Positions 11,101 through 14,121 of a DNA stretch of 53,043 nt are shown here, in pieces. The notes beneath the pieces are model-generated. The model searched no databases, was not told the origin of the DNA, and saw only the letters and a program-made list of their open reading frames with translations. Where the stretch lies: assembly GCA_964478975.1 (NCBI GenBank), contig CAYZKQ010000002.1, forward strand, positions 1 through 53,043, given 5' to 3'. This DNA is from an uncultured Vicinamibacterales bacterium. Its GTDB lineage: Bacteria > Acidobacteriota > Vicinamibacteria > Vicinamibacterales > JAHECP01. The position numbers and the translations under genes were made by a program. Each line of letters begins with the position of its first letter. Position 1 is the first letter of the stretch.

Positions 11101-11115
11101 TGGCACGGCGGTTGC
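11101..11115 (+). promoter_or_regulatory. Sigma54 (-24/-12) promoter
   Basis: TGGCAC-ggcgg-TTGC is a perfect core. It lies 22 nt upstream of ATG 11138, which has the SD aggag. Confidence 0.75.
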
Positions 11116-11137
11116 CTGGTTTCCGGCAGGAGCCACT

Positions 11138-11446
11138 ATGTCGAGCCTCGTGACGGACGGCAACCGCGAGATGGAGCGGTCGGGGCGGGCCGCGGCGAAG
11201 GAGCCCGGGAAGGAGCGCGCGATGGTGACGCGGGAGCGGGTCGAGGCGGTCCTCGAGCGCATCCGGCCGTTTCTGCAGGCCGACGGCGGGGACATCGAGC
11301 TCATCGAGGTCCAGGGCAACTCGGCGAAGGTGCGGCTCACCGGGATGTGCGCGGGGTGTCCGAGCGCGCACATGACGCTCTATATGGGCGTCGAGATGGC
11401 GCTGCGCGAAGAGATCCGCGAGTTCGAGGAGCTGCACGTCGTGTGA
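11138..11446 (+). CDS. NifU C-terminal (Nfu-type) Fe-S scaffold-domain protein
   Basis: RIRPFLQADGGDIELIEVQGNSAKVRLTGMCAGCPSAHMTL is the classic Nfu CxxC domain. An alternative start is ATG 11222. Confidence 0.85.
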   Translation: MSSLVTDGNREMERSGRAAAKEPGKERAMVTRERVEAVLERIRPFLQADGGDIELIEVQGNSAKVRLTGMCAGCPSAHMTLYMGVEMALREEIREFEELHVV

Positions 11447-11463
11447 CGGGCGCAGGTGGGCGC

Positions 11464-12483
11464 ATGCCGCGACTCGGGCCGTTCACGCCGGAGGACGTGG
11501 TCGTCGGGCGGAGCCGCCGGATGCGGGCGGTCTTCGACCTCGTCAAAATCATCGGGCCCAGCGCGAGCACCGTGCTCATCACGGGCGAAAGCGGTACGGG
11601 CAAAGAAGTCGTCGCATGCCTGATTCACCACAGCAGTCCCCGGCGCCACCGGCCGTTCGTCCCGGTGGCCTGTGCGCTGTTTTCCGAGACGCTCATCGAG
11701 ACCGAGCTCTTCGGGCACGAGCGCGGGGCGTTCACCGGCGCGGTGCGCGACAAGCCCGGCCGCTTCGAGCTGGCCCACGGCGGCACGCTGTTCCTCGACG
11801 ACGTGGACGACGTGCCGCTGGCCGTGCAGGTCAAGCTGCTGCGCGTGCTGCAGGACCGGACGGTCGAGCGCGTCGGCGGGACGCGCCCGATTCCGGTAGA
11901 CGTGCGGGTCATCGCCGGGACGAAACGCGACCTCAAGACGCTGGTGGCGGAGGGCAAGTTCCGCGAGGACCTGTATTACCGGCTCAACGTGCTGCCGATC
12001 GTGCTGCCGCCGCTGCGCGAGCGCCGCGAGGACATCCCCGACCTGATGGACCACTTTCTCCGGCGCTACTTCGCCGCCCGAGGTGAACCGGTCCCGGCGG
12101 TGGCGCCGGCGGTGCGGTGGGCCTTTCTGCAGTACCCGTGGCCGGGCAACGTACGGGAACTGGAAAACGCGTGCGAGCGGATCGCGCAGACCTGCACGTG
12201 CGGCGCGGTGCGCGTCGGCTGCGTGCCGGCCAGCGTGCTGTTCGGTGCCGACGGCCGCGCCGCGGAGGACGAGGTGGCCGCGGCGCCCGGCGAGCCGGCC
12301 GGAGCGGTGTCCCTGGACGAGCGGCTGCGGCAGGTGGAGGCGGGCCTGATCCGGTGGGCCCTCACCGTGACGACCGGCAACAAGTCGAGAGCCGCCGAGC
12401 TGCTCCAGATCAAGCGGTCGACCCTGGGCGACCGGATCGCCCGCTGCGGGCTGGACCGGGCCGGAGAGGCGGCCGGGGTATGA
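11464..12483 (+). CDS. Sigma54 enhancer-binding protein lacking any N-terminal sensory domain (AAA+ plus HTH only), with a 4-Cys insert
   Basis: [26 protein letters not shown], then [18 protein letters not shown], and the [19 protein letters not shown]. The real start is ATG 11464, inside ORF 11089..12483. Confidence 0.9.
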
Positions 12484-12522
12484 TCTGAAGACGCCCGTCG
12501 CGGGCGCAGGGAGACGGCTGGG

Positions 12523-12933
12523 ATGATAACCGAAACGCGGTACGGGTTGGGCGTGGTCGTGCGGCAGGGGTTCGACGACACTCTGGCGCGGACGGTCGAC
12601 GCGCTCAAGCAAGAGGGCTTCGGCGTCCTCACGACGATCGACGTCCGGCAGACGCTCAAAGAAAAGCTGGGGCTGGACTTTCGGCGGTATGTGATCCTCG
12701 GGGCCTGCAACCCGCCGCTGGCGCACCGGGCGTTCGAGGCGGAGCTCGAGATCGGGCTGCTTTTGCCGTGCAACGTGATCGTCTACGACCGGGGCGACGG
12801 GACGACGGCGGTGTCGGCAATGGCGCCGCGGGCGGCGCTCGGGGTCGTCGGCGAGAATCCGGCGCTGGCGGCCGTGGCGGCGGAAGCCGACGCGCGGTTG
12901 CGCCGGGCGCTGGAGGCGGTGGAGGGGGCATGA
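12523..12933 (+). CDS. DUF302 domain protein
   Basis: GFGVLTTIDVRQTLKEKLGLDFRRYVILGACNPPLAHRA...GLLLPCNVIVY is the typical DUF302 signature. Confidence 0.85.
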   Translation: MITETRYGLGVVVRQGFDDTLARTVDALKQEGFGVLTTIDVRQTLKEKLGLDFRRYVILGACNPPLAHRAFEAELEIGLLLPCNVIVYDRGDGTTAVSAMAPRAALGVVGENPALAAVAAEADARLRRALEAVEGA

Positions 12934-13019
12934 GCGAGGGGCTGGCGGTCGGCGCGGCCCTGGTGGCGTGGGTCGCGCTCACGTACTGGGTGCTGCCCAA
13001 GCTGGGCGTTCCGACGTGA
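12930..13019 (+). CDS. 29-aa hydrophobic membrane micropeptide, translationally coupled to DUF302
   Basis: ATG 12930 overlaps the DUF302 stop (ATGA), and the SD ggaggg lies about 6 nt upstream. The sequence MSEGLAVGAALVAWVALTYWVLPKLGVPT forms one TM helix. Confidence 0.45.
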   Translation: MSEGLAVGAALVAWVALTYWVLPKLGVPT

Positions 13020-13116
13020 GCGCGGCCGGCGGCGCGCGCCGAGGATCGGCGCGACGAGCGGCGGAGCGGTTGCTGAGGCGGCGGGCGGGACCCGGACGGT
13101 CCCCGAGGAGTCGACC

Positions 13117-14121
13117 ATGGCCGAGCGCGGCGCCTTCTCGATGGAGTCGGTCGTCGTCGGGCGCAGCCAGCGGATGCGCGCGGTGTTCGACTTCGTCCGC
13201 GTCATCGCCGACAGCGACAGCAGCGTCCTGATCACGGGCGAGACGGGGACGGGCAAGGAACTCATCGCGAACCTCATCCACTATTCTTCGTCGCGGCGGC
13301 ACAAGCCGTTCGTCCCCGTGAGCTGCGCCATCCTGACCGAAACGCTCATCGAATCCGAGCTGTTCGGCCACGAGCGCGGCGCCTTCACGGGGGCGATCAA
13401 GGACCGCCCGGGCCGGTTCGAGCTGGCCGACGGCGGCACGATCTTCCTCGACGACATCGACGACATCCCGCAATCGATCCAGGTCAAACTCCTGCGCGTG
13501 CTGCAGAACCGCACCATCGAGCGCGTCGGGGGCACGCGGCCGATCCCCGTCAACGTGCGCGTCATCACGGGGTCGAAGCGCAACCTCAAGCAGCTCGTGG
13601 CCGAGGGCAAGTTCCGCGAGGACCTCTACTACCGGCTGAACGTGGTGCCGATCATCCTGCCGCCGCTCCGCGAGCGCCGCGAGGACATCCCCGTCCTGAT
13701 GGAGCACTTCCTCACGCGCTTCTTCCGCGAGCGGGGCGAGGACATGAAGCCGGTGAGCCCCGCCGTGCGCCAGGCCTTTCTGGGCTACGCGTGGCCGGGC
13801 AACGTGCGGGAACTCGAAAACGCCTGCGAGCGCATCGCGCAGACCTGCACCTGCGACCAGGTGCGCATCGGGTGCGTGCCGGCCAGCGTCCTGTTCCACC
13901 CGCAACTGGAGATCGCCGAGCCGGTCTTCGACACGACCGTCCCGCGGCCGGCCATCTCCCTGGACGAGCGGCTCCAGGAAGTCGAGGCGCGCCTGATCAC
14001 CTGGGCTCTCAAGGTCAGCCACGGCAACAAGTCCCGGGCCGCGGAGGTGCTGAAGATCAAGCGGTCGACCCTCGGCGACCGGATCAAGAAGCTCGGCCTC
14101 GACCACCTCGAAATCAACTGA
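13117..14121 (+). CDS. Second sensor-less sigma54 enhancer-binding protein, paralogue of 11464..12483
   Basis: [44 protein letters not shown] and the HTH NKSRAAEVLKIKRSTL are present. By eye it is about two-thirds or more identical to the first copy. Confidence 0.9.
   Translation: MAERGAFSMESVVVGRSQRMRAVFDFVRVIADSDSSVLITGETGTGKELIANLIHYSSSRRHKPFVPVSCAILTETLIESELFGHERGAFTGAIKDRPGRFELADGGTIFLDDIDDIPQSIQVKLLRVLQNRTIERVGGTRPIPVNVRVITGSKRNLKQLVAEGKFREDLYYRLNVVPIILPPLRERREDIPVLMEHFLTRFFRERGEDMKPVSPAVRQAFLGYAWPGNVRELENACERIAQTCTCDQVRIGCVPASVLFHPQLEIAEPVFDTTVPRPAISLDERLQEVEARLITWALKVSHGNKSRAAEVLKIKRSTLGDRIKKLGLDHLEIN

Follow-up and report, generated by a model that had tools for sequence, protein, structure and literature searches.

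How does a sigma-54-dependent activator without any recognizable sensor domain receive its signal? This question is raised by a five-gene operon of an uncultured Vicinamibacterales bacterium (Acidobacteriota), located on contig CAYZKQ010000002.1, of which we analysed a stretch of 53,043 nt with a G+C content of 72% (the window). The operon encodes a NifU/Nfu-type protein, two paralogous bacterial enhancer-binding proteins (bEBP1 and bEBP2), a DUF302 protein and a 29-codon open reading frame (ORF). An earlier note, made from the sequence alone, had described these genes behind a perfect sigma-54 promoter at 11101 and a four-cysteine motif in both bEBPs. The promoter is present, ORF and Pfam analysis recovered all five genes, and the motif lies exactly at the coordinates that had been given for copy 1 and is present in copy 2 as well. 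The two bEBPs are members of a previously undescribed family of sigma-54 activators, which is found mostly in Vicinamibacterales. As an answer to the opening question, we propose that these cysteine-bearing bEBPs (Cys-bEBPs) are switched by a metal centre, most likely an iron-sulfur (Fe-S) cluster, that is bound to cysteines of the AAA+ lid and served by a dedicated Nfu-type partner. We regard this proposal as an even call.

A family of sigma-54 activators marked by four cysteines

Both bEBP1 (11464-12483, + strand, 339 aa) and bEBP2 (13117-14121, + strand, 334 aa) are AAA+ sigma-54 activators without an N-terminal domain, and they share 72% identity. The Sigma54_activat domain (PF00158) begins at residue 14 in both proteins (E values of 1.8e-67 and 6.5e-69) and is followed by AAA_lid_14 and HTH_8; no REC, GAF, PAS or V4R domain was found with Pfam. 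Walker A and the GAFTGA motif are present in both copies and are, like the AAA+ interaction domain and a Fis-type helix-turn-helix (HTH), features expected of a sigma-54 activator.

The motif C-x6-C-x-C-x6-C follows the sequence GNVRELEN and consists of C237, C244, C246 and C253 in bEBP1 (12172-12222, + strand) as well as in bEBP2 (13825-13875, + strand). That it marks a family and is conserved in orthologues was borne out by the database matches, since all 120 best matches to bEBP2 (77-100% identity, nearly all of 334-339 aa) carry it. In the total collection 188 proteins possess the motif, a few of them with Asn at the second position. An alignment of 30 members with 55-97% identity has C237, C246 and C253 invariant and C244 nearly so, and the residues between the cysteines are also nearly invariant. 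The named members come from metagenome-assembled genomes of Vicinamibacterales, Vicinamibacteraceae or Acidobacteria. The family appears to be narrow, because only a handful of motif-bearing representatives remain at 50% clustering. No description of it was found in the searchable literature, and it goes unmentioned in a survey of sigma-54 regulons.

The earlier note had taken the four cysteines for an insert between the AAA+ and HTH domains. This idea had to be given up, as the proteins have the same length in this region as FleQ and the neighbouring NtrC-type protein, to both of which they align without a gap, and the lid-domain match in Pfam includes the motif. In the AlphaFold2 (AF2) model of bEBP2, whose predicted local distance difference test score (pLDDT) averages 82.5, the motif takes up the terminal part of the last lid helix (230-243) together with the turn behind it, at a pLDDT of about 82-90. 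The gap-free alignment and the ordered lid position indicate that the cysteines are substitutions in the AAA+ lid and not part of an inserted loop.

Family members (P numbers) and their loci (L numbers) were collected by different routes. A scan of a genome collection with full-length bEBP2 was dominated by generic patterns such as ESELFGHE and gave only two true members, L001 and L002. The loci were therefore recovered by identical-protein look-ups and by scanning metagenomes with the 109 C-terminal residues, which are specific to the family. A search of cluster representatives returned mostly generic bEBPs but revealed fusions to NifU.

Association with a NifU/Nfu-type protein

The first gene of the operon (ORF 11138-11446, + strand) encodes a NifU/Nfu-type protein with a conserved core of 74 aa starting at 11222. 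It matches PF01106 (E = 9e-25; 87 bits against a cut-off of 27), agrees in part with the NifU and NfuA models of NCBIfam, and contains the CxxC motif in the form GMCAGCPS, which is kept in all free-standing NifU homologues. In L091, where the neighbouring bEBP is one of those with Asn at the second position, the NifU protein retains its CxxC as well. None of the five proteins compared with NCBIfam has a match above the cut-off.

A nifU gene is linked to the Cys-bEBP gene in 37 of the 42 metagenome loci with enough upstream DNA. It is divergent in 26 of them and co-directional in six, and five are of the two-copy type found in the window; the latter were counted by a DUF302 gene just upstream, and the nifU gene further upstream is visible in L092 and L097. 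The linkage also exists in the genome loci L001, L002, L081-L086, L088 and L091. In L001 and L082-L086, a 74-aa nifU is divergent and about 80-140 bp away from a single Cys-bEBP gene, which is followed by a sigma-54 promoter and an ORF for a GNAT-like protein. L002 and L091 have a lone bEBP gene that is immediately preceded by a nifU of the same orientation.

Moreover, natural fusions exist in which a NifU domain precedes the AAA+ domain, the four cysteines and the HTH (Pfam). They occur in at least two lineages, one with P0133 and P0271 and another with P0125 and P0290, and the fusion genes are located on contigs of 9-43 kb. The link of the bEBPs to an Fe-S scaffold-type protein, which had been deduced from the one operon, is consequently stronger than claimed, given both the 37 linked loci and the fusions. 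The NifU-like protein gives the impression of a detached unit for regulation or maturation that is fused to the activator in some cases. It is correct that the bEBPs of the window are "sensor-less" in the sense that they possess no N-terminal domain, but the label is misleading, since the NifU domain of the fusions occupies the position of the sensor in other bEBPs.

Promoters, palindromes and candidate targets

The nifU operon is preceded by the sigma-54 promoter TGGCACGGCGGTTGC (11101-11115, + strand), which matches TGGCAC-N5-TTGC perfectly. The equivalent promoter is perfect in L081 and L088, has one mismatch in L002 and was also found in L092, L097, L163 and L171. The whole window contains nine sigma-54 sites with at most one mismatch, where 2.3 are expected, and none of 100 shuffled sequences reached nine.

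From the upstream regions of 14 promoters, Gibbs sampling extracted a palindrome with the approximate consensus GCCGGAAWTCCGGC. Its position weight matrix (PWM) was then applied to the 45 perfect sigma-54 promoters of 80 further family loci, a few of which overlap contigs that had already been examined (for example L118 = L083, L092 = L081). Among these promoters, 87% have a site scoring 12 or more in the 200 bp upstream, compared to only 9% of random 200-bp windows, and 51% have one scoring 14 or more, compared to 3.5% of random windows. The position of the palindrome in the family loci is nearly constant, mostly 75-90 bp upstream of the sigma-54 promoter.

At the nifU promoter of the window, one copy of the palindrome, TGCCGAAAACCCGG (11057-11070, PWM score 17.8), is located 44 bp upstream, and a second one, CCTGGTTTCCGGCA (11115-11128, PWM score 14.6), abuts the -12 element. 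The abutting copy occupies the corresponding position in L081 (8018) and L088 (6180), and the nifU promoters of L092, L097, L169 and L170 have a palindrome 23-52 bp upstream. Further copies are present 160 bp upstream of the mtrA promoter (CCGGATTTCCGGCG, 15871-15884, PWM score 18.0) and 97 bp upstream of the feoB promoter (TGCCGGGTTTCCGC, 19944-19957, PWM score 15.0), and additional strong sites are located at 22205, 40360, 41125 and 41260.

The first of the candidate targets is the gene directly behind bEBP2. The perfect sigma-54 promoter TGGCACTGCCGTTGC (14144-14158, + strand) begins 22 bp after the bEBP2 stop codon and precedes an ORF at 14160-14618 (+ strand), which probably starts with the ATG at 14172 (148-152 aa). 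The encoded protein has no match in Pfam or NCBIfam, but its AF2 model (mean pLDDT 87.9) identifies it as a GNAT-fold protein, as the top Foldseek matches are all GNATs (E about 1e-6, template modelling scores of 0.55-0.69). No other gene downstream of bEBP2-type activators is as well conserved, a homologue being present in 50 of 71 loci. Of 50 metagenome loci, 34 have a promoter with no more than one mismatch in the gap that separates the bEBP stop codon from the GNAT-like ORF, and 24 of these promoters are perfect. The GNAT gene with its promoter at 14144 is part of the system. The distance from the -12 element to the start codon is just 1-14 nt (window 14144-14175; L082 9113-9141; L083 4542-4570), so that transcripts of the GNAT gene would have no leader, or almost none, in several loci. 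In the 97% relative just the C-terminal half of the GNAT-like ORF is left (L081 10984-11199, L092 6309-6524), and no sigma-54 promoter was found after bEBP2 in L081/L092; a remnant without a promoter suggests that the partner gene is decaying in this closest relative.

The other candidate targets are genes for iron uptake and electron transfer. A sigma-54-like promoter with one mismatch (16031-16045, + strand) is followed by genes for an MtrA-like multihaem cytochrome (16172-17149) and an MtrB/PioB porin (17168-19372), and another one with one mismatch (20041-20055, + strand) is located at the start of feoB (ORF 20040-21857, the true start being probably about 30 nt later), behind which lies feoA (21826-22155). 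The promoter scan revealed equivalents of the mtrA promoter in L081 (12603), L088 (11420) and L085 (14229), and of the feoB promoter in L081 (16723) and L088 (15544). Genes for multihaem cytochromes or MtrB/PioB proteins are likewise neighbours of a fusion gene (L090) and of single-copy genes (L085), and porin-cytochrome or c-type cytochrome genes also lie next to the fusion gene in L089. These recurrent neighbours point to a regulon of iron and extracellular electron transfer. Together with the recurrence of the promoters, the palindrome makes it plausible, as far as sequence comparison goes, that the operon is autoregulated and that the GNAT gene, the mtrAB-like genes and feoB are under the same control, which is what the earlier note had suggested.

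However, there might also be an entirely different input at the nifU promoter. Upstream of the operon, genes for a two-component system are located, namely a PAS-PAS histidine kinase (7194-9020, - strand; Pfam PAS, HisKA and HATPase_c), which is found at the same place in L081 and L088, and an NtrC-type response regulator that is itself a bEBP with REC, AAA+ and HTH domains in Pfam (9624-10979, + strand) and whose gene ends about 120 bp before the nifU promoter. It is possible that this regulator acts as upstream activator in an expression cascade, in which the signal enters via the PAS kinase, the NtrC-type regulator fires the promoter at 11101, and the Cys-bEBPs are constitutively active once they are made, NifU and the cysteines having no role in signalling. 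The NtrC-type gene is indeed the one that precedes nifU in the window, L081, L088 and L002, and its 3' end is visible there in L097, L163 and L170. Additionally, a second palindrome-like element, GGAATAATCC (11007-11016; family form GGGGAATAWTCCSC), distinct from the first one, was recognized by eye about 85-95 bp upstream of the nifU promoter and in a corresponding place in L081, L002, L088, L097, L169, L170, L163, L171 and L091. Because the GGGGAATAWTCCSC element and the NtrC-type gene precede co-directional nifU promoters, the two-component system may feed the operon. It also fits that removal of the N-terminal domain makes several bEBPs constitutive, for instance OrpR without its PAS domain. 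Nevertheless, in the commonest arrangement of the family (divergent nifU, single bEBP and GNAT gene) a two-component system is absent from the flanks shown for L082-L086, and both the conserved cysteines and the NifU fusions would be left without explanation. We therefore consider it improbable, with a slim chance at best, that the cascade is the whole story; as an extra layer of input it can coexist with a metal-centre switch.

A metal-centre switch in the AAA+ lid?

Conservation within the family, synteny, fusions and the architecture of promoters and palindromes are direct observations. On this basis, the proposed switch would work as follows. The input would be a metal centre, most likely an Fe-S cluster, held by the four cysteines on the last helix and the turn of the AAA+ lid, and the Nfu-type partner, either adjacent or N-terminally fused, would supply this cluster or read it out. 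The state of the cluster might report the supply of Fe-S clusters or iron, or alternatively oxygen or redox conditions, and might gate the assembly or the activity of the ATPase ring. Once active, the bEBP would bind the GCCGGAAWTCCGGC-type palindrome upstream of sigma-54 promoters, and the outputs would be its own operon, the GNAT-fold gene and, in the window, probably the MtrAB/PioAB-like porin-cytochrome genes and feoAB. Metal binding by the four cysteines, the identity of the signal and the direct promoter targets are thus what we infer.

Several observations weigh against this proposal. To our knowledge, C-x6-C-x-C-x6-C corresponds to no canonical ferredoxin-type or other Fe-S motif, and the four cysteines could equally well make up a structural zinc site or serve as a thiol switch. 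The cysteines are also not entirely fixed, as a sublineage (P0278, P0286, P0320; L091 7001-8041) has Asn in place of the second one (ACERIAQ[TM]NTCG..R.GC). Concerning the partner, five of the 42 metagenome loci have no nearby nifU, four of them belonging to a P0121-like subgroup (L102, L103, L114, L144), and in the fusion proteins P0125 and P0290 (L090 6368-7720) the first cysteine of the NifU CxxC is replaced (LHPTC / LRPSC) although the lid cysteines are intact. Walker B also departs from the usual form and reads FLDD[IV]DD, with DD and not the canonical DE, in all 185 of 185 members (FLDDVDD at 11791-11811 and FLDDIDD at 13444-13464 in the window). With regard to the targets, the promoter at 14144 has no good palindrome upstream in the window. 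The palindrome also occurs at 40-41 kb beside unrelated metabolic genes, and it cannot be assigned to the Cys-bEBPs in preference to the adjacent NtrC-type regulator.

A competitor is the assumption that the four cysteines serve as a structural zinc site or as a thiol/disulfide switch and that the NifU-like protein is either the sole sensor or simply a co-regulated Fe-S carrier, its gene being adjacent on account of shared regulation and not for the delivery of a cluster to the activator. SoxR-type [2Fe-2S] sites use the tight motif C-x2-C-x-C-x5-C, which we count against this assumption. The spacing of the family motif is non-canonical for the ferredoxin type, though, the near-invariant residues between the cysteines and the ordered segment resemble a structural knuckle, and both the five loci without nifU and the variant with three cysteines speak for it as well. 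On the other hand, the fusion of an Nfu domain in two lineages is hard to explain if NifU were mere co-regulated cargo, and the pair vnfU-vnfA1 is a precedent for the combination of a homologue of the NifU C-terminus with an Fe-S bEBP. Taken together, we judge the zinc or thiol explanation to be unlikely.

A variant of the metal-centre switch puts the emphasis on the partner. The Nfu domain could be a new regulatory module of bEBPs, and a cluster between the CxxC motifs of Nfu domains, or one that is shared with the lid site, could control ring assembly. This is a tentative idea, and we rather doubt that it is correct.

If the Nfu domain does play this part, the status of Fe-S clusters, iron or oxygen would be read directly by a sigma-54 activator of Fe(II) uptake and of porin-cytochrome conduits. 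More generally, a metal-centre switch would add to those of the sigma-54 activators a new input module, consisting of an Fe-S carrier domain, separate or fused, and a cysteine site in the lid. It would also provide a first handle on the regulation of MtrAB/PioAB-like and FeoAB genes in the abundant soil Vicinamibacterales. The combination of promoter and palindrome can be used directly in reporter and DNA-binding tests.

Two old paralogues in one operon

The five operon genes are separated by 17, 39, -4 and 97 bp, and no terminator-like or sigma-70-like sites interrupting them were found on the + strand. The order nifU-bEBP-DUF302-bEBP recurs in close relatives, namely in L081 and L092 (97%), L088 and L097 (89%) and L095, and partially in L093 and L100. 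It does not recur across the family, however. The pair is restricted to relatives with a bEBP2 that is at least 89% identical, a single copy is present in L001, L002, L082-L086 and L091, and 75 of the 80 metagenome loci have neither a second copy nor DUF302. The paired copies are thus not a trait of the related genomes in general, which counts against the suggested pairing by the standard of the earlier note itself, where the lack of two copies in related genomes had been named as refuting.

The tandem arrangement could suggest a recent duplication, but this can be ruled out, as bEBP1 and bEBP2 were sisters in none of 300 bootstrap replicates (neighbour-joining, 47 proteins). bEBP2 groups with the single-copy proteins that have a divergent nifU (88% bootstrap), is 75-79% identical to those of L001, L082 and L085, and is an orthologue of the single-copy family members by both identity and tree. 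bEBP1 branches earlier, among the forms with co-directional nifU, and the fusions are located at the base of the tree. The lineage of the window has combined two old paralogues in one operon, with bEBP1 representing the type with a co-directional nifU and bEBP2 the type that is followed by a GNAT gene.

This history also bears on the comparison to HrpR/HrpS that the earlier note had made, according to which both copies would be a co-dependent pair and active only as a hetero-hexamer. Both copies lack N-terminal domains and belong to one operon, both were retained in L081, L088, L092, L095 and L097, and hetero-oligomers of paralogous bEBPs have been documented for HrpRS, FleQ/FleT and VnfA1/VnfA3. 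Furthermore, the recognition helices of the HTH domains are nearly identical, so that bEBP1 and bEBP2 probably bind the same DNA sites and possibly form mixed oligomers. Nevertheless, the single copies in the great majority of the family loci must be self-sufficient, the pair is confined to the closest relatives, and its members are not each other's nearest paralogues. Walker A, GAFTGA and the DD form of Walker B are present in both copies, without any complementary degeneration. Since single copies are the rule, an obligate hetero-hexamer of the HrpR/HrpS type can hardly be the mechanism of the family, and we regard co-dependence of the two copies as quite unlikely.

The two remaining genes of the operon differ in their distribution. 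The DUF302 gene (12523-12933, + strand; PF03625, E = 5e-26) lies between the two bEBP genes in L081, L088, L092, L095 and L097 as well. L087 contains a DUF302 gene (7725-8120), 56% identical to that of the window, some 2.6 kb past the 3' end of a NifU-bEBP fusion gene, which suggests that DUF302 is a recurrent accessory of the system. Nothing informative on the function of DUF302 was found in the literature. The 29-codon hydrophobic ORF (12930-13019, + strand) is present as described, but not as a conserved component. Its only homologue was found in L081 (65% identity), and it is absent from the 89% relative L088, which leaves it as a doubtful, lineage-restricted ORF.

Family variants and further genes of the window

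Within the family, the P0121-like subgroup (L103 5250-6822; also L101, L102, L114, L144) has a fifth cysteine in the motif (VRCGC) and no adjacent nifU. A perfect sigma-54 promoter and a palindrome are present upstream of the bEBP gene in L101-L103 and L114. In L103 this gene is located beside hemN- and hemH-like ORFs, which were identified by eye, and the GNAT-like ORF of the same locus contains a cysteine-rich insert (TCCGGVCRCS). The 69%-identical relative P0124 (469 aa) has lost the third and the fourth cysteine (ENLCERIAETCVAGQ...) and gained a C-terminal extension of about 125 aa. The DD form of Walker B was also seen in some REC-containing bEBPs among the cluster representatives.

In the window, the region between the GNAT gene and mtrA (14619-15849, - strand) encodes a hemerythrin-domain protein and a regulator of the Crp/Fnr family. 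The Crp/Fnr gene is conserved in the relatives, which have a small radical-SAM gene at the position of the hemerythrin gene. Another perfect sigma-54 promoter (6506-6520, - strand) is located upstream of a gene for a Zn-dependent alcohol dehydrogenase (5332-6450, - strand). The three strong palindromes at 40360, 41125 and 41260 belong to a region of about 1.1 kb (40100-41300) between a Pyr_redox/4Fe-4S gene (38231-40195, - strand) and genes for an alcohol dehydrogenase and an enoyl-CoA hydratase, which also contains four sigma-54-like sites with one mismatch each. This region may be a further member of the regulon or the target of another activator.

Comparison with known systems

One of the closest parallels is found in Azotobacter vinelandii, where the sigma-54 activator VnfA1 relies on cysteines that are conserved and seems to contain an Fe-S cluster (PMC9542535). 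Its gene is co-transcribed with vnfU, which encodes a homologue of the NifU C-terminus that is thought to mature this cluster (PMC9542535), and paralogous VnfA proteins form hetero-oligomers. As in vnfU-vnfA1, the NifU-type gene of the window is upstream of the activator gene and co-oriented with it (17-bp gap), and the same holds for L002, L091 and six metagenome loci. However, the cysteines of VnfA1 are located in an N-terminal GAF domain, whereas the bEBPs of the window have no GAF domain and carry their cysteines in the AAA+ lid. In addition, the NifU domain is fused to the activator in some family members, the candidate regulon comprises cytochromes, iron uptake and the GNAT gene and not nitrogenase, and the phylum is Acidobacteriota.

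A likeness to NifA had been suspected from the position of the cysteines. In alpha- and betaproteobacterial NifA, four cysteines at the junction of AAA+ domain and linker are proposed to bind a metal cluster of unidentified nature (PMC10590331). For the AAA+ core of the window proteins, the top-scoring references are indeed the nifA model and the solved structure of NifA (9qq6), although the model scores of 361 and 339 bits are below the NCBIfam cut-off of 528.85. The position of the cysteines is indeed similar, but the spacing is not. NifA of Paraburkholderia has C-x11-C-x19-C-x4-C, and in the alignment the family motif starts one residue after the second cysteine of NifA, the first one having no counterpart. 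Homology of the two motifs was therefore rejected. The bEBPs of the window also differ from NifA in the missing GAF domain, and there are no nif genes nearby. If the proposed metal centre is real, a protein without a GAF domain and with its own cluster donor would be a tractable model for the metal centre of oxygen-sensitive NifA.

OrpR of Desulfovibrio vulgaris is a sigma-54 activator that is switched by a redox-sensitive [4Fe-4S] cluster in its PAS domain and was presented by its authors as the first characterised Fe-S redox regulator among bEBPs (PMC8359166). Its cluster is bound by three cysteines of the N-terminal PAS domain, in contrast to the bEBPs of the window, which have no PAS domain, cysteines in the lid and an Nfu protein that is separate or, in other family members, fused.

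HrpR/HrpS of Pseudomonas syringae, which can be named together with FleQ/FleT, are regulated in trans by a partner protein (HrpV). Like HrpR and HrpS, the bEBPs of the window, L081, L088, L092, L095 and L097 are adjacent paralogues without N-terminal regulatory domains, but this pairing is not conserved among the Cys-bEBPs and the copies are not sister paralogues. With the general Nfu/NfuA carriers, the NifU-type partner shares the PF01106 domain and its cluster-binding CxxC motif; unlike these, it is a stand-alone protein of 74 aa that is dedicated to a transcription activator by synteny or fusion. Compared to the known kind of cysteine-dependent activator with a NifU-type partner, the Cys-bEBPs bring three twists: cysteines in the AAA+ lid, an N-terminal fusion to Nfu in some members, and a candidate regulon of GNAT, iron and cytochrome genes in a poorly studied order.

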